Below, piece by piece: positions 24,408 to 36,634 of a stretch of 64,000 nucleotides of DNA. The DNA lies in assembly GCA_963739795.1 (NCBI GenBank), contig CAVUBL010000010.1:410798-474797 (forward strand), written 5' to 3'. Under the pieces are notes generated by a model. The model saw only the letters and a list, made by a program, of their open reading frames with translations. It did not search any database and had not been told where the DNA came from. The position numbers were made by a program, and so were the translations under genes. Source of the DNA: an uncultured Acidobacteriota bacterium (GTDB lineage: Bacteria; Acidobacteriota; Thermoanaerobaculia; Multivoradales; DATKCC01). The first letter of the stretch is position 1. Every line of letters starts with the position of its first letter.

Positions 24408-27400
24408 CTACACCTCCAGCCGGTCGTTCGGCCGGGCGACGAGCAGGTAGAGCGCTGGCATCGAGAAGATGCTGATGACCAAGCGCGCCACCAGGCCGGC
24501 GACGATGACCAGCGCGAAGGGGCGCTGCGAGTCCGAGCCGATGCCGGTGGAGAGCGCCGCCGGCAGCAGCCCCAACGCCGCCACCAGGGCCGTCATCATG
24601 ATCGGTCGTAGCCGGACCAGCGCCGCCTCGTGGGTCGCCGTCGCGATGTCCACCCCTCCGCGCCGCAGCTCGTTGGCGTACGAGATGTAGACCACGGCGG
24701 TCTGAACGGAGACCCCGAAGAGCACCAGGAAGCCGATGCCCGACGAGACCGAGAACGGCGTCCCGGTCGCCCACAAGGCGACCAGGCCTCCGACCGGGGC
24801 CGAGAGCAGCACTCCGACGACCGTGATCAGTGGGAACTTGAAGTTGCTGTAGAGGGCGAAGAGCAGCAGGAAGATCACGAACAGGGTCAGCGGCAGGATG
24901 ATCCTCATCTGCCGCCGCGAGGCCGTGTACTCCTTGTACTCGCCACCCCAGTCGATCCGGTAACCGGTCGGGATCTTCACCTTCCCGCTCACCTGGCGCT
25001 GTGCGTCCTCGACCGCGGAGGCCAAGTCCCGGCCTTCGACCGAAAACTGAACGCCGATATAGCGCTGGTCGTTCTGCCGGTAGATGAACGAGGCGCCGTT
25101 CTCGATGCTGATCTTGGCGAGCTCCTTGAGCGGCACCTGCTGGCCGCCCGGCGTGGCGACCAGGATGTTGCCGATCGTCTGCGGGTTGCTGCGGAACTGG
25201 GGCTCCAGGCGAACCACCAGGTCGAAGAGCTTCTCGCCCTCGACCACCTCGGTCGCCGCATCGCCTCCCACCGCGGCTTCGATCAGGTCGTTGATGTCTG
25301 CGACGTTCACCCCGTAGCGGGCGATGGCGGCGCGATCGACCTCGATCGCCAGGCTCGGCTGGCCGAGCTCCTGGACCAGGGTCACGTGGTCGATGCCGCG
25401 CACCCCCTCGAGGACGCGCTTGATCTGCTTGCCCTTGTCCTCGAGGACGTGGAGGTCACTGCCGAAGACCTTGACCGCCAGCGCGCTCTTCAGGCCGGTC
25501 TCCGCCTCGTCCACCGCATCTTCGGCCGGCTGGGTGTAATTGAAGATGATGCCGGGGAAGGACTCCAGCTTCTGGTCGATGGCGGCGATGAGCTCGGGCT
25601 TCGTGCGGTACTTGCCGTGCCACTGGCTGTACGGCTTCAGGCCGACGAAGAACTCGGCGTTGAAGAAACCCGTGGGGTCGGTGCCGTCGTCCGGCCGCCC
25701 GTGCTCGGAGGCGACCACGGTGACCGGCCCGAAGGAGCGCAGAACCTTGCGGATCTCCGGCACGATCTTGCGCGACTCGTCGAAGGAGATGGTGTACGGC
25801 ATGGTGGCCCGCACCCACAGCGCCCCTTCGTCCAGCTTGGGCATGAACTCCGCCCCGATGTGGGGGATCAGGAGCATCGACAGGCCCAAGAGCGCGGCCG
25901 AAACGAAGGTCGTCGTCCAGGGGTGGCGGAGACTCGCGTCGAGACCGCGGCCATAGACCCTCTTGGTCCACTCGAACGCCACGTTGCGCCGCTCCTTGAC
26001 GCCCCGCCTCATCGCCCAGGAGCAGAGCACCGGGAGGAGAGCCAAGGTGACGATCAGGGAGCCCACCAGGGCGAAGATCATGGTGTCGGCCATCGGCTTG
26101 AACAGCTTGCCCGACGGGCCGGAGAGGACATAGATCGGCAGGAAGCCGGCGATCATCACCACCACCGAGTAGAAGATCGGGCGGTCGACCTCCGCCGCGG
26201 CGCGGACGATGAGCTGATGGATCTTGATCGGTTGCTCGTGGTTCTCCGCCACCTGCCGGAAGATGTTCTCCACCATGAAGACGGCGCCGTCCACGAGGAT
26301 GCCGAAGTCCACGGCGCCGATCGAGAGCAGATTGGCTGGGATCCCCTTGAGGTCCAGGCAGACGAAGGCGAAGAGCAGGGCGAGAGGGATGGTGACCGCG
26401 ACGATCAGACCGGAGCGCCAGTCGTAGAGAAAGAAGATCAGCGCCACGACGACCAGGACCATGCCGCGCATCAGGTTGTCCTCGACCGTGCGGGTGGTGA
26501 GGTCGATGAGATCCGTGCGGTCGTAGAAGGGATGGACCTTGACGTCCTTGGGCAGGATGTGCGCGTTGAGCTCGCGGGTCTTGGCTTCGACCCGCTTGAG
26601 CACGGTCTGCGCCTGCTCGCCCTTGCGCAGCAGGATCACGCCCTCGACGGCGTCGCTCTTCTCGTTGAAGCCGAACTGGCCGAGGCGCGGGGCGTGGCCG
26701 ATCACCACCTTCCCCACGTCCTTGACCAGGACCGGCGTGCCGTCGTGGACGGCCAGGACCACCTGGCCGATGTCCTCCGGGGTGTGCACCCGTCCGAGGC
26801 CGCGCACGTAGTAGAACTGCCCGCCCTCCGAGTAGAAGCCGCCGCCGGCGTTGCCGTTGTTGGCGGCCAGCGCCGAGACCACGTCGGCGACCGAGAGCCC
26901 CGCGCCGGCGATCTTGGACGGGTCGAGGAGCACCTGGTACTGCATCGTCTCCCCGCCCAGCCCGGAGTCGTCGGCGACGCCGGGCACCGCCTTGAACTGG
27001 CGCTCGACGATCCAGTCTTCGATCGTCTTGAGCTCCATCGGAGAGCGATCGGGGCTCTCGAGGACGTAGCGGTAGATCAGCCCCGACGGCGAAAAGAGCG
27101 GTGCCACCGAGGGCGAGACCCCGTCCGGAAGCTCGACGTCGGGCAGACGCTCGAAGACGAGCTGGCGGTCGAAGTAGTTGTCGGTCTTGTCGCCGAAGGT
27201 GAGGCGCACGTCCGAGAGGCCGTAGAGCGAGATCGACCGCTGCACCACCATCCCCGGCGTGCCGTTCATCTCGACTTCCGTGGGGACGGTGATCAGCCGC
27301 TCCACCTCCTCGGCGGCGTGCCCCGGCCATTGGGTGACGATCTCGACCAGGGGCGGAGAGAGATCTGGATAGGCGTCGACCGGCAGGCGGCGGAAGGAGT

Positions 27401-27533
27401 AGACACCGGCTCCGACCAGAAGCAGAGCGAAGAGAACCATCAAGAAGCGCTGGTTGAGCGCCAGCTTGACGATCCGGTTGATGATCGACGGCGTCGCGTC
27501 GACGGAGGGCTGCGGAGTCTCGGGGGTGCTCAT
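24408..27533 (-). CDS. CusA/CzcA-family heavy-metal efflux RND transporter
   Basis: LPVDAYPDLS, DFGILVDGAVFMVEN, AEFMPKLDEG and RLRPIMMTALVA motifs. Confidence 0.93.
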   Translation of the reverse strand: MSTPETPQPSVDATPSIINRIVKLALNQRFLMVLFALLLVGAGVYSFRRLPVDAYPDLSPPLVEIVTQWPGHAAEEVERLITVPTEVEMNGTPGMVVQRSISLYGLSDVRLTFGDKTDNYFDRQLVFERLPDVELPDGVSPSVAPLFSPSGLIYRYVLESPDRSPMELKTIEDWIVERQFKAVPGVADDSGLGGETMQYQVLLDPSKIAGAGLSVADVVSALAANNGNAGGGFYSEGGQFYYVRGLGRVHTPEDIGQVVLAVHDGTPVLVKDVGKVVIGHAPRLGQFGFNEKSDAVEGVILLRKGEQAQTVLKRVEAKTRELNAHILPKDVKVHPFYDRTDLIDLTTRTVEDNLMRGMVLVVVALIFFLYDWRSGLIVAVTIPLALLFAFVCLDLKGIPANLLSIGAVDFGILVDGAVFMVENIFRQVAENHEQPIKIHQLIVRAAAEVDRPIFYSVVVMIAGFLPIYVLSGPSGKLFKPMADTMIFALVGSLIVTLALLPVLCSWAMRRGVKERRNVAFEWTKRVYGRGLDASLRHPWTTTFVSAALLGLSMLLIPHIGAEFMPKLDEGALWVRATMPYTISFDESRKIVPEIRKVLRSFGPVTVVASEHGRPDDGTDPTGFFNAEFFVGLKPYSQWHGKYRTKPELIAAIDQKLESFPGIIFNYTQPAEDAVDEAETGLKSALAVKVFGSDLHVLEDKGKQIKRVLEGVRGIDHVTLVQELGQPSLAIEVDRAAIARYGVNVADINDLIEAAVGGDAATEVVEGEKLFDLVVRLEPQFRSNPQTIGNILVATPGGQQVPLKELAKISIENGASFIYRQNDQRYIGVQFSVEGRDLASAVEDAQRQVSGKVKIPTGYRIDWGGEYKEYTASRRQMRIILPLTLFVIFLLLFALYSNFKFPLITVVGVLLSAPVGGLVALWATGTPFSVSSGIGFLVLFGVSVQTAVVYISYANELRRGGVDIATATHEAALVRLRPIMMTALVAALGLLPAALSTGIGSDSQRPFALVIVAGLVARLVISIFSMPALYLLVARPNDRLEV

Positions 27534-28705
27534 TGATTCTCCGCGAACTTGAGGAAGAGTCCACCCTCGACGACGACGCGGTCGTCGGGCGAGAGCCCGG
27601 AGGTCACCTCGAAGAGATCGCCGATCCGCGAGCCGAGGTCGACCCGGCGGCGGAAGTAGTTACCGTCCTTGCCGGCGAGATAGACGAACGGCAGGTTCTC
27701 GTCATCGCGCAGCACGGCCGAGGTCGGCGCCAGAAGCCCCTGATGCCCGGTGCTCGAGTGGATCCGCACCTTGACGTAGAGGTCCTTCTTCAGGGCGCCT
27801 CCCGGGTTGTCGGCCAAGATGCGAACCGCCACGGCCCGGGTCTGGGGATCGACGACGGCGGCGATGTAGGAGACCTTGCCGGGGACCGGGTCGGGCGCGG
27901 TCTCGGTGAGGACCTCGGCCGGATCTCCCACCTTGACGTCGGCCAGGTCGCGGGTGAAGACGTTGGCCATCACCCACATCTTGGAGAGGTCGGCGACGGT
28001 GAAGCAGGTCGTTGCGCCGGCGCCGAGGAGCTCGCCCGGCGTGATCATCCGCTCGACCACCGTGCCGCGGATCGGAGACCGCAGCAGCGCATAGCTCCGG
28101 TCGATCGCCTTGCCGGCCACCAGGTCGTCGAGGGTCTTCTGATCGACCCCCAGCGAGCGCAACGCTTCGAGCGCGGCGTCGCGATCCGCCTCGGCGGAGG
28201 TGGCGTCGGTCTGGGCCTGCTCGAGCTCGCGGCGGGAGAGCCCACCGTCGGCGAACAGCTTGCTGTCCAGATCGGCGATGCGCCGGGCGTTGGCGGCGTC
28301 GGCGGCGCCCTTGCGGTAGGCGCTGATGTCGGCGGCGAAGTCGGGCGAGGCCACCTCGGCCAGAGGCTGGCCGCGCTTCACCTGGGCGCCGACGTCCACC
28401 AGCAGCCGGGCCACCGGTCCCGAGATCGGGGAGATGACCTGGGTCGACTGATCGGCGTCGAAGGCCACCGTGCCGGTGGTCTCCACCGTGCGCCGGTAGT
28501 CGGTGGGCTCGAGGGTCACCGTGTGGATGCGAGCCTGCTGGGCAGGCGTGATGGTGATGCCCTGGGGGGTCGGGTCGGCGGCACTGGCGACCGGCGCGGC
28601 GGCCGGGTCGGAGGCCGGATCGGAGGCGTCGTGGCAGGCTCCGAGGAGCGCCACGGCGGGCAGCAGGAAGAGCACGGGGAGGAACTTCGAAGGTTTCGTT
28701 CTCAT
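27530..28705 (-). CDS. RND membrane-fusion (periplasmic adaptor) protein
   Basis: Lipobox LLGAC; ISGPVARL..VKRGQPL and LRSPIRGTV lipoyl halves. Confidence 0.9.
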   Translation of the reverse strand: MRTKPSKFLPVLFLLPAVALLGACHDASDPASDPAAAPVASAADPTPQGITITPAQQARIHTVTLEPTDYRRTVETTGTVAFDADQSTQVISPISGPVARLLVDVGAQVKRGQPLAEVASPDFAADISAYRKGAADAANARRIADLDSKLFADGGLSRRELEQAQTDATSAEADRDAALEALRSLGVDQKTLDDLVAGKAIDRSYALLRSPIRGTVVERMITPGELLGAGATTCFTVADLSKMWVMANVFTRDLADVKVGDPAEVLTETAPDPVPGKVSYIAAVVDPQTRAVAVRILADNPGGALKKDLYVKVRIHSSTGHQGLLAPTSAVLRDDENLPFVYLAGKDGNYFRRRVDLGSRIGDLFEVTSGLSPDDRVVVEGGLFLKFAENQ

Positions 28706-28715
28706 CGTCGGAGTC

Positions 28716-30005
28716 TCAGGAGTTGGCGGCGGGCAGCCTGGTGCCGATGGCGCGTTCGAGATCGGCGCGCGAGTCGTTGGCCGCGCCCAGGGCGTCGGCG
28801 AGCTCGCTTTCCGCGGCGAGCAGCGTGCGCTTGGAGTCGAGAAGATCGAGGGCGGAGAGCCCCCCGAGGCTGTAGCTCTTGCTGGCGATGTCGTAGGCGC
28901 GTTGGGCCTCGGGGAGAAGCTGGTCTCGGAGATAGATCGCCTGGCGGCGGGCGGTGTCGGCGGCCTGGAAGGCGCTCCGTACCTCGAGGGCGACTTGCGC
29001 TTCGAGGTCGCGGGAGGAGGCCGAGAGCTCCTCCTCGTAGTGCTCGGCCTCGGCGACCTGCCCCTTTTCGTGCTGCCAGAAGAAGAGCGGGAAGCTGATG
29101 CCCGCCACCGTGCTGAAGGTCGAGGTGTCCCCTCGGTAGTTGTTGCGCTCCAGGGTGACGTCGAAGTCCGGCAGCCAGTAGGACCGGGCGAGCTTGGTGG
29201 AGGTGTGCGCCGCCTTGCGCTGCGCCGCCAGGCTCGCCAGGTCCGGACGGTTCGCCGCGGCGAGCTTGACCAGCGTGTCCAGGGGTGGCAGCGGGGGCGG
29301 CACGGACAAGGGGTCGCTGAGCGCCAGGGGCGAGGCGAGTGGCCGCCCGACCAACCGGTTGAGGGTCGAGCGCGAAGTCGCGAGCTGCCGCTCCGTGGCG
29401 ATCAGGGCGTTTTCCGCCTGGGCCACGTCCACCTTGGCCTTGATCACGTCGATCTCGGGCACCGTGCCGGCTTCGAAACGGGCCTGGGTCTTGGCGAGGA
29501 AGTCGTCGGCCAGGGCCTTGGCCTGCTCGAGGTCGCGCAGGTGCCGCCGGGCCACGAGGAGCGCGTCGTAGGCGGTGACGGTGTCGGCGGCGAGCTGCTG
29601 GCGCGCCTGGGTGTAGTCGAGCTCGGCCGACTTGTACAGGTCGGTCGCCGCCTTGCCGCCGAGGCGGATCTTGGTGGGAAAGGGGACGGCGAGGTCGAAG
29701 GCGTAGATGCGCGCCGGCGAGCTGCCGGGCGAGAGCAGGCCGGTCTCGTCGTCGTACTCGGCCGACAGGGCCGGATCGGGCAGGGCGCGGGCCTCGACGA
29801 TCCGGGCTCGCGCCTGCTCCACTTGCTGGCGGGCGGCGGCGAGGCCCGGGTTGTGCGCCCAGGCCTCGCGGACGGCCTGCTCGCGGCTGAGTCCGGGCGG
29901 CGTCGCTTTCGGCGGCGCGGCCGGCGGAGCCGCCGAAGCGCGGGCAGCCGGCAGACAGGCTATGGTGATCGCTACCGCCAACGAGGCGGCACGAAGAGGT
30001 TTCAT
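28716..30005 (-). CDS. TolC/CzcC-family outer-membrane efflux protein
   Basis: Signal peptide, OEP helical repeats, C-B-A operon position. Confidence 0.88.
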   Translation of the reverse strand: MKPLRAASLAVAITIACLPAARASAAPPAAPPKATPPGLSREQAVREAWAHNPGLAAARQQVEQARARIVEARALPDPALSAEYDDETGLLSPGSSPARIYAFDLAVPFPTKIRLGGKAATDLYKSAELDYTQARQQLAADTVTAYDALLVARRHLRDLEQAKALADDFLAKTQARFEAGTVPEIDVIKAKVDVAQAENALIATERQLATSRSTLNRLVGRPLASPLALSDPLSVPPPLPPLDTLVKLAAANRPDLASLAAQRKAAHTSTKLARSYWLPDFDVTLERNNYRGDTSTFSTVAGISFPLFFWQHEKGQVAEAEHYEEELSASSRDLEAQVALEVRSAFQAADTARRQAIYLRDQLLPEAQRAYDIASKSYSLGGLSALDLLDSKRTLLAAESELADALGAANDSRADLERAIGTRLPAANS

Positions 30006-30073: not shown

Positions 30074-30439
30074 CTACGCGGCAGGAGGTGCGCGCCCGTC
30101 GAAGGGGCGCGGGAGGCTGACGTGCGGGGGCCGAGCCGGGCGGCTCACGGTCCGCGAGGAGACCGCGGGAAGGCCAACGCCGGCGAGGGGACTGGTGCCC
30201 ACAAGGGCCATGCCCAGGAGCAGGCAGGCGGGGCAATCGAAGGGGCTGTGCGAGCCCAGGAGCTGCCCGCTGGCCACGGGATGGCCGGGCGAGACGCTAT
30301 GGGCGACGGCCGCCGCGGCGAACAGGTCGCCGAGCTCGTTGCTGTCGTGGTGGAACTGCGGCAGGGGCGCCAGGGTCTCGACGGAGACGAACAGGGCGAG
30401 GAGCGCCAGGCCGGTGAGGGTGCGTTTCCAGCTCCGCAT
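30074..30439 (-). CDS. DUF2946/CzcI/CruR-like leader protein (121 aa)
   Basis: N-terminal hydrophobic helix, His-rich segment, CPAC, C-terminal RAPP; immediately upstream of the efflux operon. Confidence 0.7.
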   Translation of the reverse strand: MRSWKRTLTGLALLALFVSVETLAPLPQFHHDSNELGDLFAAAAVAHSVSPGHPVASGQLLGSHSPFDCPACLLLGMALVGTSPLAGVGLPAVSSRTVSRPARPPHVSLPRPFDGRAPPAA

Positions 30440-32949: not shown

Positions 32950-33290
32950 CGGACCCTATCCCATTCGAGGGTCACGGACAACGCCCCGGCAGGGCGATGC
33001 GAAGGCGCGACGGTTCCAATCGCTCTCGGTCGAAGAGCGGATGGCGTATCTCACCGAGCTCACCGAGCTGGCCCTCCAGAACAACCCCCGCATCGCCGAG
33101 TCCAAGGATGCTCCAGCGGCTCCAGGGCGTGCTCGCGTCCTTACGCTCCCATGACGTCGAATACCTGGTGATCGGCGGAATCGCCTCCGTTCTCCACGGC
33201 GTGCCGCGGGCGACGTTCCATCTCGACATCCTCATCCGGCCGGACATCGAGAACGCTCGGCGACTCCTCCAGGTATTGCACCTCGAGGCG
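32950..33290 (+). pseudogene. Truncated copy of the small-protein/nucleotidyltransferase module
   Basis: ~280 bp near-identical to 46058-46338; NTase (ATG 33108) stops matching after ~57 aa; DLD changed to HLD. Confidence 0.75.
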
Positions 33291-33627
33291 CCTGGCACCT
33301 GCGCCCGGGGCAGGCGGCGCTGCCGGCCGTCGAGGCGAGGCTCTCCCGGAGGATCCGGGGGTGGCGAGCGGCGATCCGTAGCAGGGCGATGGCGGGGCCC
33401 TCGGGATGCCGGCGGCCTTGCTCCCAGTTGCGCAGGGTGTGGACGCTGATCCCGACGGCGCGGGCGAGCTCCGCCTGCGAGAGGCCGATGAAGCGACGGA
33501 GGGCCGCCACGTCGGCGCCGGATTCGAACTGTCCGTTCATCAGGCGCTTTCTCATGCTCGCCGGGAGGCTGCGCGCGAGTTGCTCCGGAGTGAGCTCGGG
33601 GATGTGCTGTCGGGGCGACTCGTCCAT
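33232..33627 (-). CDS. XRE-family HTH protein (orphan HigA/MqsA-like antitoxin)
   Basis: LRRFIGLSQAELARAVGISVHTLRNWEQGRRHPEGPAIALL. Confidence 0.75.
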   Translation of the reverse strand: MDESPRQHIPELTPEQLARSLPASMRKRLMNGQFESGADVAALRRFIGLSQAELARAVGISVHTLRNWEQGRRHPEGPAIALLRIAARHPRILRESLASTAGSAACPGRRCQAPRGAIPGGVAERSRCPAG

Positions 33628-33685
33628 GCTGACGACGGGGCGCGGTCCGGGGCCGATAGCGCACCCTGTGCTAACGTCTCGCTTC

Positions 33686-34051
33686 ATGTCGAAGCAACGG
33701 ATTCGACGGGTAGCCGTTCCGTGCCTGTCCGCGATCCTGCTGCTGGGTGCGATCGACCTCGGCTCGTCGCGCGAGGTGCACGACCCCTACGCCACGGCCG
33801 GCGTGGAGGTCTTTCCGTGCACCTCGGCGCAGCCGGCCCCCTATCGCCACATCGAGTCGACGCACCCCGAGCACCTGCCGCTCTGCCCCTTCTGCCTGCT
33901 GCAGATGCAGAGCGCGGGCGCCCACCTGCCGCCGGCCGCGGGCAGGGTCTCGTCGCCCTCGCGAGAGTTCGAGGTGCGCGAGGTCCCCACTCCTCCCCTC
34001 CTCACCTTCCACCACCCGGCAAGCCTCCGCGGCCCCCCCGCGGCCTTCTGA
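33686..34051 (+). CDS. DUF2946/CruR-like leader protein (121 aa)
   Basis: N-terminal hydrophobic helix, His residues, CPFC, C-terminal RGPP; upstream of a TonB-dependent receptor. Confidence 0.7.
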   Translation: MSKQRIRRVAVPCLSAILLLGAIDLGSSREVHDPYATAGVEVFPCTSAQPAPYRHIESTHPEHLPLCPFCLLQMQSAGAHLPPAAGRVSSPSREFEVREVPTPPLLTFHHPASLRGPPAAF

Positions 34052-34201
34052 GCCCCTTCCAGCCGTCGCCTGAACACCCGGGCACCGCCGCGCGCGGCGC
34101 CTGGTCGATGTCCGTTTAGCCGGACGGTCCGCCGGATTCGGCCCCGTGCGGGATCCGGGCCGCCCGCTTGCGAAGGATTCAAAGGAACTCAGGAGGTACC
34201 C

Positions 34202-36634
34202 ATGTCTCGATATGGAATAGACCGAATCTTCAACCGGCGGGCGCTTCGCGTCGCCCGTCTCGTCTTCTGGCTCTCGCTCGCCCTGCCCGCCGCGGCCCTG
34301 GCCGGCCAGGTGCTGGGCAAGGTCATCGGCCCCGACGGCTCGCCGCTCCCCGGCGTGACCGTCCGTCTCTCCAACCACGTCACCGGCTACGAGCAGCAGG
34401 TCACCACCGGCGCCGACGGCGCCTTCCTGCTCTACAACGTCCCCGACAACCCCTATCACCTGACCGCCGAGCTCTCGGGCTTCTCGCCGGTCCACGAGGA
34501 CGTCTCGGTACGCGGCGCGGTGCCGGTGGAGCGCATGCTCACCCTGGCGCCGAGCTTTTCCGAGAGCGTCTCGGTCGAAGGCGCGAAGGAGCCCGTGGCC
34601 CTCGAGACCGACAGCTCCACCAGCCACGTGGACATCGACCGCTCCCTCATCCGCCGCTTCCCGGCGGCCGCAGCCTCGCGCGCCTTCGAGTCGATCGTGC
34701 TCTCGGCTCCCGGCTTCTCCCAGGACGAGAACGGGCGCTACCACTTTCAGGGCGGTCACTCGCAGCAGCTCCTGGTGGTCGACGGCCAGCCCATCGGCGA
34801 CCAGGTGGGGATCACATTCTCCAACTCTCTCGACCCGGCCATCGTCCAGGACCTCGAGATCCAGACCGGCGGGATCTCGGCCGAGTACGGAGAGAAGGCC
34901 TACGCGGTGCTCAACCTCACGACGCGCTCGGCCCTGGGTCATGACGGCTTCCACGGCGACGCCGGGGTCGGCGGCGGCAGCTTCGGCACCCACCAGGGCT
35001 CTGCGAACCTCGGCTGGGGCGCTGCGCGCCGCGGGGTGTTCGCCAGCGTCGACGGCTCGTCCTCGGACCGCTTCCTCGATCCCGTGTCGTTCGGCAACCT
35101 CCACAACCACGGCGACACTACCCGCGCCTTCGTCCGCTACGACCTGCTCTCGGGGAGCGGCTCGGACTCTCTGAGGTTCACGGCCAACGCCGGCCGTACC
35201 CGCCGCGACGTCACCAACCTGCCGTCCCAGGAGGCGGCGGGTCAGGCCCAGCGGGTCCACTCGGAGGACTGGAACGGCAACCTCGGGTATCAGCACGTCG
35301 CCGGCGACTGGGTCGCCGAGGGCCTCCTCTATGCCCGCGACAACCGCCTGCGCCTCTTCGGCTCACCCGGCGACACGCCGGTGACCGCCGACCAGAACCG
35401 CTCCCTGGCCAACCTGGGCGGGTCGTTCTCGATCTCTCGGCAGATGGGGGTCCACGAGCTCGAGGCCGGTGTCCAGGCCAAGAGGTTTCCCATCGACGAG
35501 CGGTTCGACTTCGGGATCACCGATCCCGGCTTGAACGACCCGGCTTCGGAGGGGTACGACGCCAATCTCGCGCCCTACGACCTCACCCGCGGCGGGCAGC
35601 TCTTCACATTCTCGGGCTCGCGCACGGGCACCTACGGAGCCGCCTTCGTCGAGGACACGATGCGCCTCCGGGCCCTGACCGTGCACGCGGGCGTGCGCTA
35701 CGGGCGCAACCGGCTCTTCGAGACGGAGTCGGAGGTCCAGCCGCGCCTCGGCGTCGCCTACTCCATCGCGCCCACCCACACGGTCCTCCGCGCCTCCTAC
35801 GACCGGATGTTCGTCACCCCGGAGTACGAGAACATCCTGCTCTCCTCCTCGCCCGAGGCCGCGGCCTTGGTGCCGCCGGACATCCAGGCCTCGAACCGCC
35901 TGGGCTTCGGGCAGCTCTACAACGTGTCGGAGAAACAAGACGTGATCAACGTCGGTGTGCAGCAGGGGATCGGCTCCGCCCTCAGAGTCGACGCCTCCTT
36001 CTGGAAGCGGCGGGTCACGAACGCCGCCGACCAGTCGCAGTTCTTCAACACCGGCATCGTCTTCCCCCTCAACTTCAAGGGCGGCGACCTACACGGCTGG
36101 AACCTACGGCTGGACGGTGGTCCGGTCGCCGGAGTGCGCGGCTACCTGTCGCTGGGGCACGTCCGGGCCATCTACGACCCGCCGTTCGTCGGCGGGCTCT
36201 TCCTCGACGCCGAGGCCCTCGACAGCCTTAGCGGCGGCCCGTTCGTCATCGACCACGACCAGAACCTCCAGGAGCAGCTCGGCCTTTACTGGGACGTTCC
36301 CGGAACCGGGTTCTGGCTCGGCCTGACCCAGCGCTACGACTCCGGCCTGGTGACCGACGCCGGGGACCCGGCGGACGTCCTCGCCAGCCCGGACACGGCC
36401 TACGCCGAGCCCTACATCCGGTTCGCCGAGGACCCGCAGCGGATCCGGCCACGCACCGTCTGGAACGCCTCCGCCGGGACGCGCCTGGAGCGCTACCACC
36501 TCCCGTTGGAGCTCGAGGTGGACGTCCTGAACCTGACCAACGAGAAGGGCCTCTACAACTTCCAGTCGGTCTTCGGCGGCACCCACGTCATCCCGCCCCG
36601 GGCGATCTCAGCCCGCCTCCGGGCGACGTTCTAG
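34202..36634 (+). CDS. TonB-dependent receptor with N-terminal carboxypeptidase-regulatory-like domain
   Basis: Signal peptide, plug region (GGISAEYG), beta-barrel pattern, C-terminal Phe (RLRATF). Confidence 0.9.
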   Translation: MSRYGIDRIFNRRALRVARLVFWLSLALPAAALAGQVLGKVIGPDGSPLPGVTVRLSNHVTGYEQQVTTGADGAFLLYNVPDNPYHLTAELSGFSPVHEDVSVRGAVPVERMLTLAPSFSESVSVEGAKEPVALETDSSTSHVDIDRSLIRRFPAAAASRAFESIVLSAPGFSQDENGRYHFQGGHSQQLLVVDGQPIGDQVGITFSNSLDPAIVQDLEIQTGGISAEYGEKAYAVLNLTTRSALGHDGFHGDAGVGGGSFGTHQGSANLGWGAARRGVFASVDGSSSDRFLDPVSFGNLHNHGDTTRAFVRYDLLSGSGSDSLRFTANAGRTRRDVTNLPSQEAAGQAQRVHSEDWNGNLGYQHVAGDWVAEGLLYARDNRLRLFGSPGDTPVTADQNRSLANLGGSFSISRQMGVHELEAGVQAKRFPIDERFDFGITDPGLNDPASEGYDANLAPYDLTRGGQLFTFSGSRTGTYGAAFVEDTMRLRALTVHAGVRYGRNRLFETESEVQPRLGVAYSIAPTHTVLRASYDRMFVTPEYENILLSSSPEAAALVPPDIQASNRLGFGQLYNVSEKQDVINVGVQQGIGSALRVDASFWKRRVTNAADQSQFFNTGIVFPLNFKGGDLHGWNLRLDGGPVAGVRGYLSLGHVRAIYDPPFVGGLFLDAEALDSLSGGPFVIDHDQNLQEQLGLYWDVPGTGFWLGLTQRYDSGLVTDAGDPADVLASPDTAYAEPYIRFAEDPQRIRPRTVWNASAGTRLERYHLPLELEVDVLNLTNEKGLYNFQSVFGGTHVIPPRAISARLRATF

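Follow-up and report, generated by a model that had tools for sequence, protein, structure and literature searches.

What is a 121-residue open reading frame (ORF) with an Arg-Gly-Pro-Pro (RGPP) motif at its end doing 150 nt upstream of a gene for a TonB-dependent receptor? The pair lies on the forward strand of a 64,000-nt stretch of DNA from an uncultured Acidobacteriota bacterium (contig CAVUBL010000010.1, positions 410,798 to 474,797). We refer to this whole stretch as the window, and coordinates given without a locus or contig name are positions within it. The original prediction, made from the letters alone, had read the small ORF as a metal-sensing ribosome-arrest switch of the type of CruR from Bordetella. 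As far as sequence analysis allows, our results support that interpretation. We consider it probable that the ORF is a regulatory leader of the CruR/CutF kind, in which translational arrest at RGPP would enable expression of the receptor and metal binding at a CxxC motif would release the arrest. It appears to belong to the known metal-sensing RAPP/RGPP arrest leaders and to be a variant of them, from a lineage that scores below the Pfam threshold and an acidobacterial host, with a probable specificity for zinc and possibly a dual read-out through Rho and the Shine-Dalgarno (SD) sequence of the receptor gene.

The putative leader peptide and its conservation

Translation of the region and the coordinates of its ORFs confirm the elements from which the prediction had been built, namely the 121-amino acid (aa) ORF, its N-terminal helix, the string HPEHLPLCPFC, the terminal RGPPAAF and the distance of 150 bp to the receptor gene. 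The leader protein begins with MSKQRIRRVAVPCLSAILLLGAIDLG, and its full 121-residue translation (33686-34051, forward strand) is MSKQRIRRVAVPCLSAILLLGAIDLGSSREVHDPYATAGVEVFPCTSAQPAPYRHIESTHPEHLPLCPFCLLQMQSAGAHLPPAAGRVSSPSREFEVREVPTPPLLTFHHPASLRGPPAAF. The parts of the leader and of the receptor gene are arranged as follows.

33686 to 34051, forward strand: leader ORF (P0001), 121 aa, TGA stop included in the coordinates; based on translation, the orthologues P0002 and P0003, and a 36-sequence family.
33692 to 33760, forward strand: N-terminal export signal or membrane helix, residues 3-25; AlphaFold2 helix with a block pLDDT of 91-95.
33884 to 33895, forward strand: CxxC motif, C67-P-F-C70, a presumed metal ligand within HPEHLPLCPFC; based on the family alignment.
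33896 to 34027, forward strand: linker of 44 residues from CxxC to RGPP, fixed in length, poorly conserved in sequence and predicted to be disordered.
34028 to 34039, forward strand: putative arrest core, R115-G-P-P118 (CGC GGC CCC CCC), with R, P and P invariant in the family.
34040 to 34051, forward strand: three-residue tail AAF and TGA stop; the tail is 2-3 residues long in 31 of the 36 family members.
34052 to 34201, forward strand: intergenic region of 150 nt, G+C-rich and structured, with 77% mean column identity across three orthologous loci (221-column alignment, short coding flanks included).
34202 to 36634, forward strand: TonB-dependent receptor gene, 810 aa, with a signal sequence and the C-terminus ...RATF; based on Pfam and alignment.
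34742 to 34759, forward strand: HFQGGH, receptor residues 181-186; based on translation.

The possibility that the leader is a chance ORF is rejected by the conservation of its orthologues, by the pattern of codon positions and by a genome-wide motif scan. A word-indexed search recovered two 121-aa orthologues with 77% and 73% identity, both with all motifs kept. Among the orthologues, third codon positions carry 24-30 substitutions and first and second positions 15-20 each, and the G+C content of third positions (GC3) is 0.89-0.91 across the three orthologous leaders, with 0.89 for the one in the window. For the first proline of RGPP, the three orthologous loci use CCC, CCT and CCG, which is synonymous variation, and it is therefore the peptide that is conserved. 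We also scanned the whole genome in six frames for CxxC-x42-46-R[AG]PP followed by zero to six residues and a stop, with the reversed genome as a control; this composite motif occurs in three open ORFs of the genome and in none of its reverse. RGPP alone was rejected as a signal, as R[AG]PP near a stop is found 512 times in six frames of this high-GC genome and 445 times in the reversed one, and only the composite motif is specific.

An exhaustive profile search yielded 34 cluster representatives of 114-142 aa, which together with the two close orthologues form the family of 36 sequences. The second cysteine (C70), Arg115, Pro117 and Pro118 are invariant in the alignment (36/36), the first cysteine (C67) is present in 35 of 36 members, and His55, Leu71 and Gly78 are nearly invariant. 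The consensus around the CxxC is CPxCLxxLQTxGAHL, with His55 lying upstream of it. Of 35 sequences, 30 have a distance of 44 residues from CxxC to R[A/G]PP, and the range over all 35 is 43-45. The core itself is RAPP in 20 members and RGPP in 16, so the two are interchangeable. Hardly any sequence is conserved in the linker, which is also nearly free of indels; the N-terminal half is rich in indels, and a hydrophobic N-terminal segment is kept in every member. With the family alignment as input, AlphaFold2 predicts only two helices in the leader, at residues 3-25 (pLDDT above 90) and over nine residues at CPFCLLQMQ, with pLDDT values of 50-70 for the remaining residues. The leader is 34% identical to the family member P0006, and the receptors encoded downstream of the two are 67% identical. 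Rapid drift of the leader combined with strict conservation of motif and length is what would be predicted for a ruler that spans the ribosomal exit tunnel. The family is present in 6 of 301 genomes of the same phylum, mostly from the same order.

The product of 34202-36634 has the plug, the barrel and the C-terminal aromatic residue of a TonB-dependent receptor. A CarboxypepD_reg domain covers residues 37-108 (53.6 bits) and a Plug domain residues 141-233 (25.5 bits against a cut-off of 23.9); the PF00593 barrel is not matched directly, and the protein aligns end to end with the receptors of loci L016 and L017, which pass PF00593. It is 87% identical to the receptor of L003 and 67% identical to that of L023, and the receptor behind P0006 keeps its DENGRYHFQGGHSQQLL segment. 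HFQGGH, which had been pointed out in the plug, is present at residues 181-186, where other receptors have the canonical plug motif (R)PVIRGL, and is kept within this receptor lineage. Being a variant of the standard motif PVIRGL, with which it aligns, it is no evidence of metal binding, and we dropped it as such.

Relation to CruR, CutF and known arrest peptides

CruR, or Bp2923 of Bordetella pertussis, is a DUF2946 (PF11162) upstream ORF that controls bfrG (Roy et al. 2022, PMC9426467). The same study lists as hallmarks of DUF2946 proteins a CXXC motif, RAPP three residues from the C-terminus, an export signal and the first position in an operon, followed by a long intergenic region (162 nt for CruR) and often by the gene of a TonB-dependent transporter. 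For CruR, the spacing from CxxC to RAPP is 45 residues and the tail has 3 residues, and inserting 5 residues disrupts regulation (PMC9426467). Our leader is likewise a small protein, in which basic residues (K3, R5, R7 and R8) mark the N-region at the hydrophobic helix 3-25; it has a CxxC at C67-P-F-C70, a spacing of 44 residues that falls within one or two of ~45, and RGPP at residues 115-118 followed by AAF and the stop. It is first in its operon, and a G+C-rich gap of 150 nt separates it from the 810-aa receptor; L003, L004 and L023 have this pair as well, separated there by 183, 151 and 135 nt. A tract with more C than G at the 3' end of the leader and a mature part predicted to be unstructured are further similarities with CruR. 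The two differ in their core (RGPP here, RAPP in CruR) and in their hosts (an acidobacterium here, a proteobacterium for CruR), and unlike CruR, our leader has no PepSY_TM gene downstream, matches the Pfam model below threshold only and has relatives that adjoin zinc genes instead of copper genes. The stop region is also predicted to pair with the receptor SD, a possible translational read-out not described for CruR.

All the sequence hallmarks of a CruR-type leader that could be tested are present and conserved in the 36-sequence family, and two parts of the CruR assignment failed, namely the match to the DUF2946 hidden Markov model (HMM) and the presence of copper-related neighbors. The HMM comparison, which had been suggested as a check on the original prediction, was not passed: P0001 scores 12.5 bits against a PF11162 gathering score of 23.7 (E 0.26), with residues 44-118 aligned to profile positions 34-117 of 117, and the family consensus scores 13.2 bits, also under the cut-off. 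PF11162 is matched at E<=1 by 13 of the 36 members (best 1.1e-4), and other Pfam families by at most two members each. DUF2946 exceeds its threshold in only 3 of the 301 genomes of the phylum. Seven above- or near-threshold matches from the phylum have CxxC and RAPP, and the DUF2946-type proteins of L030 and L031 show the 44-residue spacing by hand count. When the family was aligned by hhalign with six DUF2946-type proteins of the same phylum, the probability was 60% (E 8.6e-5) and the alignment was gapless from CxxC through RAPP. Straight membership in DUF2946 is rejected, as the HMM threshold is missed by the protein, the family consensus and both paralogues. The family seems instead to be a divergent sister subfamily, linked to DUF2946 by remote homology only and not a proven member of it. 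A weak DUF2946 match elsewhere in the genome, at C21:203735-204022, contains a TGA and lies between the gene gap and a mechanosensitive channel gene; we treated it as noise.

Experiments have validated RGPP as an arrest core that is equivalent to RAPP, and both are robust, refractory to EF-P and counter-selected in ordinary proteins because of ribosome stalling (Fujiwara et al. 2025, PMC12992588). Both motifs are enriched at the C-termini of small secreted proteins encoded 5' of TonB-dependent receptor genes (PMC12992588). Toeprinting of the CruR arrest in vitro placed Pro 3 of the motif in the P site and Pro 4 in the A site (PMC12992588). Because CruR has that register, we predict that a stall on the leader would place Pro117 (34034-34036) in the P site and the next residue, Pro118 (34037-34039), in the A site. 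With ApcA, ApdA, ApdP, a Streptomyces lividans set (PMC12992588) and SecM, the leader shares a small secreted product with R-[A/G]-P-P at its C-terminus, a co-directional gene downstream and an expected stall with Pro-tRNA in the A site. Those peptides monitor Sec or YidC activity and are released by translocon pulling, whereas the conserved Cys/His cluster at a fixed distance from the core in our family implies a release by metal binding.

The leader also falls within the operational definition of CutF-like proteins, a collection assembled around CutF of Rhodobacter capsulatus (Ozturk et al. 2023, PMC9973294; bioRxiv 10.1101/2025.02.05.636593). That definition asks for fewer than 150 aa, a signal peptide, PP in the last 15 residues and a same-strand gene within 1000 nt (PMC9973294); the leader has 121 aa, the helix at residues 3-25, PP at residues 117-118 and, 150 nt further on along the same strand, the receptor gene. 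Genes of the TonB type rank among the most frequent neighbors in the collection, and its authors say that not every member is copper-specific (PMC9973294; bioRxiv 10.1101/2025.02.05.636593). As in CutF, an mRNA helix is predicted to mask the downstream ribosome-binding site, to be opened by a stalled ribosome. The target of CutF is a detoxifying oxidase, induced by copper and preceded by a short intergenic stem-loop; here, in contrast, the target is an importer behind a 150-nt intergenic region, and the opposite sign of regulation would be expected.

RNA features and a proposed switch

Two predicted features of the RNA, a tract with more C than G and a pairing between the stop region and the SD sequence, fit an expression of the receptor that depends on stalling. 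They involve the following segments.

~33956 to 34090, forward strand: tract rich in C and poor in G (C>G bubble), centered on the arrest site and a candidate rut region for the loading of Rho.
34045 to 34052, forward strand: CUUCUGAG, running from the last base of the Ala120 codon through Phe121 and the stop to the base after it; complementary to the receptor SD region.
34188 to 34196, forward strand: CUCAGGAGG, the receptor SD region, with AGGAGG 5 nt before the ATG; read from the sequence and invariant in three orthologues.

The C>G tract peaks at 38 C and 9 G in the 60 nt at 33986-34045, exactly over the arrest codons, and the first 50 nt past the leader stop are in the top 5% of the genome for C-G skew in the window and at four other family loci. 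A rho gene is present in the genome. The Rho loading site of CruR was mapped to a C>G region, and a stalled ribosome was proposed to block Rho there (PMC9426467). As for the pairing, CUUCUGAG (34045-34052) is complementary to CUCAGGAG (34188-34195), which holds the receptor SD, and the helix is present in the minimum free energy fold, in the centroid and in the three-locus consensus fold. The duplex has an energy of -21.5 kcal/mol in the window and is matched by 1 of 500 shuffles there, by 2 of 500 in L004 and by 15 of 500 in L003. When Pro117 is in the P site, the stop-region segment spans +11 to +18 and would therefore be either occupied or unwound by the stalled ribosome. Across the family, the Watson-Crick complement between the arrest-to-stop window and the SD window is 5-11 nt long in eight of nine loci, the longest (11 nt) being that of leader A in L004, and the cognate pair ranks best or second best in five of the nine. 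The first motif Pro codon is the rare CCU in 7 of 10 family loci, which yields an anti-SD-like CCUCC; genome-wide, the corresponding share is 4.9% of Pro codons and 13% of Pro-Pro dicodons. No intrinsic terminator or sigma-70 promoter was predicted in 33300-34400, including the stretch between the leader and the receptor.

In the mechanism that we propose, the nascent leader would stall its own ribosome at RGPP when metal is scarce, the P site being occupied by Pro117 and the A site by Pro118. The stalled ribosome, sitting amid the C-rich, G-poor tract, would mask the rut-like region and keep Rho off the transcript, and by covering the stop-codon segment it would free the receptor SD from pairing. 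Both effects would permit transcription and translation of the receptor. When metal is sufficient, Cys67 and Cys70, perhaps together with the conserved His55 and His80, would bind it just outside the exit tunnel; the metal-bound chain would compact, the arrest would be released and the ribosome would terminate on the leader. Rho would then load, or the SD helix would re-form, or both, and the receptor would be turned off. We infer this off-with-metal sign from the logic of CruR and the physiology of an importer, and either the Rho or the SD read-out may operate.

The same arrest leader could follow the logic of CutF instead, with metal on the exported chain prolonging the stall during Sec translocation, opening the SD helix and turning the receptor on. 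Such wiring would agree with the retention of the export helix in all 36 members and with the predicted stop-region/SD pairing, a read-out of the CutF or SecM type (PMC9973294; bioRxiv 10.1101/2025.02.05.636593), and it would make sense for a second leader in the window (30074-30439, reverse strand), which heads an efflux operon. For an uptake receptor, however, induction by its own cargo would be counter-productive where the metal is scarce, and CruR, the only characterized leader before a TonB receptor, works in the opposite direction and independently of its signal peptide (PMC9426467). Moreover, the CxxC of a stalled chain would be 47 residues from the peptidyl-transferase center, probably too short a distance to pass the tunnel and SecYEG if the chain is extended. 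We therefore hold this wiring to be unlikely.

Alternatively, the small protein might be a stable periplasmic or membrane-anchored metal binder, such as a metallochaperone for the receptor or for ZnuA, with RGPP serving in structure or recognition. A metal-binding protein could have an export signal, Cys and His ligands that are conserved, and a consistent co-location with metal uptake genes, all of which are seen here, and CutF was itself initially believed to be a copper chaperone (discussion in PMC9426467). A stable fold is hard to reconcile with a leader that is predicted to be almost wholly disordered and is conserved only at CxxC and R[AG]PP, and a linker of fixed length and free sequence suits a tunnel ruler better. 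The leader also diverges much faster than the receptor (34% against 67% identity) and ends in a motif of the kind that ordinary proteins avoid (PMC12992588), which makes this explanation quite unlikely in our view.

Upstream of the leader, no SD sequence precedes the ATG in the window (33660-33686) or in L003 (5975-6000), where the respective sequences are GTCTCGCTTC and GTCTCGACCC. A conserved TGCTAACGT / TGCTAGAGT lies 12-20 nt 5' of the leader ATG and might serve as a -10 element, in which case the transcript would be nearly leaderless.

Gene contexts and the likely metal

Gene neighborhoods were covered for 11 lineages of the family, and zinc-type uptake genes (ZnuD-like receptors or ZnuA/ABC-3) adjoin the leader in seven of them. 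In L016, L017, L025 and L026 the leader is followed by a receptor for which ZnuD is the best family (NCBIfam E 3e-91 to 1e-123); the best PDB match of the L017 receptor is ZnuD 4rdr (7.7e-66), and two of the ZnuD-like receptors among these four loci carry long His/Asp/Glu loops. In L015 and L018 the order is leader, a gene for an outer-membrane protein (OMP)-like product, ZnuA and ABC-3. L004 has, on one strand, leader A (RAPP), a 450-aa OMP-like gene, ZnuA, ABC-3, the orthologue of the window leader (RGPP) and the same receptor, and the orthologous leader-receptor pair thus stands directly 3' of znuA and znuB. The leader of the window and those of L003 and L023 precede an unclassified receptor of the CarboxypepD_reg type. 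The leader of L028 has an unrelated large protein next to it, L022 is without a context call, and PMT-type glycosyltransferases are other neighbors of family members.

Because the neighbors of its relatives are ZnuD-like receptors or ZnuA/ZnuB transporters, zinc is a likelier signal for the leader than copper. The metal sensed is most likely zinc, which for the copy in the window is a best guess drawn from those relatives. That the leader is a copper-specific CruR orthologue and its receptor a copper importer like BfrG or OprC is very unlikely, since, for all that CxxC is a classical Cu(I) motif, that the architecture is identical to that of CruR and that there is, 3.3 kb away, a Cus/Czc-like resistance-nodulation-division (RND) operon preceded by a CPAC...RAPP leader of its own, the PF11162 threshold is not passed, no copper-related gene (OprC-type TIGR01778, PCuAC, Sco, YcnI, CopC or PepSY_TM) adjoins any of the 11 lineages, and seven of these adjoin ZnuD-like receptors or ZnuA/ABC-3 genes.

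ZnuD itself (e.g., in Neisseria, PDB 4rdr) is under Zur control, and the receptors behind four other family leaders resemble it. The receptor in the window, in contrast, is only 20-25% identical to the ZnuD-like receptors of the family and forms a separate, unclassified lineage. It has no PDB sequence match at E<=0.01, no ZnuD match in NCBIfam and no His/Asp-rich insertions, and its identification as ZnuD or OprC was rejected, as there is no PDB or NCBIfam match of either kind.

Several findings weigh against a zinc-responsive arrest switch at this locus. The shortfall against PF11162 described above is one of them. The compartment in which the metal is sensed and the sign of the response are not readable from sequence, and CruR and CutF differ on both. 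The C-rich tract is partly a by-product of Pro, Ala, Thr and Ser codons. The fold of the whole region is no more stable than shuffles (z = -0.26), so we cite only the specific stop/SD helix; this pairing is invariant among the three orthologues and hence offers no covariation, it is absent in L017, and in L003_B, L004_B and L016 it is no better than mismatched pairs. With regard to zinc, the window receptor is not ZnuD-like and is without His-rich loops, and in its own genome the leader-receptor pair sits in a toxin-antitoxin and defense island, away from the single znuA. In addition, a search 5' of the leader for Zur- or Fur-like palindromes found none either in the window or in L003.

To our knowledge, metal-sensing arrest peptides have so far been characterized only for copper and in proteobacteria (CruR and CutF). 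Here the same build of export helix, CxxC, 44-residue ruler and R[A/G]PP is found in Acidobacteriota, in a family that is missed by the Pfam model and tied to zinc-uptake genes. If our reading as a zinc-sensing arrest leader is correct, nascent-chain metal sensing would extend to zinc, for which no riboswitch has been described (discussion in PMC9426467). The fixed 44-residue spacing would then make it possible to study, in a natural system, how metal-induced folding at the exit tunnel generates force, and the arrangement would account for the control of some uptake receptors that have no evident Zur or Fur box. ORFs of this type are now annotated as unnamed hypothetical proteins, and the receptors behind them are without predicted regulation. 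In a more detailed form, which we put forward tentatively and with the odds somewhat against it, Zn(II) on the Cys2/His cluster just past the exit tunnel might fold the chain, pull it off the RGPP/RAPP arrest and so halt zinc import once transcription has started, which would make the family the first arrest-peptide zinc sensor. In this genome, sister leaders would then be wired in opposite ways, one for import through this receptor and one for export by the RND operon 3.3 kb away, and the CCU-CCN codons would double as an anti-SD sequence.

Between the leader and znuA, three loci (L004 2631-3983; L015 3399-4925, reverse strand; L018 2277-3629) encode a secreted protein of 450-507 aa whose N-terminal part is Ala-rich and coiled and whose C-terminus reads ...H(A/K)H..(F/Y). 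Neither Pfam nor NCBIfam has a family that matches it, and it may be an unclassified outer-membrane zinc channel. A palindrome, GGCATG-ATAC-CATGCC, is located ~70 nt 5' of leader A (L004, about 2010-2030) and is conserved at the L014 counterpart; it is a possible Zur-like operator of the znu-type operon. Nothing comparable is seen upstream of the window leader.

Sister leaders and neighboring genes

The second leader in the window (30074-30439, reverse strand) is likewise 121 aa long, starts with MRSWKRT and has CPAC, a 43-residue linker and RAPPAA before the stop. It lies 71 nt 5' of an efflux operon of TolC-like, membrane fusion protein (MFP) and Cus/Czc-type RND genes (24408-30005, reverse strand). 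All of its motifs are kept in nine homologues, its DUF2946 match reaches 16.4 bits, and hhalign relates it to the receptor-leader family with a probability of 84%. The CCU CCU Pro codons of this leader pair with the AGGAGG of the next gene. Sister leaders may thus control import and export in one neighborhood.

A third leader in the same genome, at C21:433529-433930 on the reverse strand (L014 5030-5425, reverse strand), reads CPAC...SRAPPRG before the stop. Its orthologue in L004 is leader A (P0038), at the head of the operon of OMP-like, ZnuA and ABC-3 genes. An IS200-like Y1 transposase gene (L014 3540-4805) apparently interrupts the gene 3' of the third leader after the signal-peptide part, and next at this locus comes a gene for a PMT-type glycosyltransferase.

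An MqsA/XRE-type helix-turn-helix (HTH) ORF at 33232-33687 on the reverse strand has an annotated start that overlaps the leader ATG (TCATG), and its C-terminal third looks out of frame. As a regulator of the pair this gene was rejected, since it is not conserved beside the pair in L003, L004 and L023. We take it to belong to the toxin-antitoxin stack around the diversity-generating retroelement (DGR) island of the window. Genes for PMT/GT39-type glycosyltransferases recur 3' of leader-receptor pairs, at L003 9294-11132, L016 4751-6076 and L014 1337-3169 (reverse strand).

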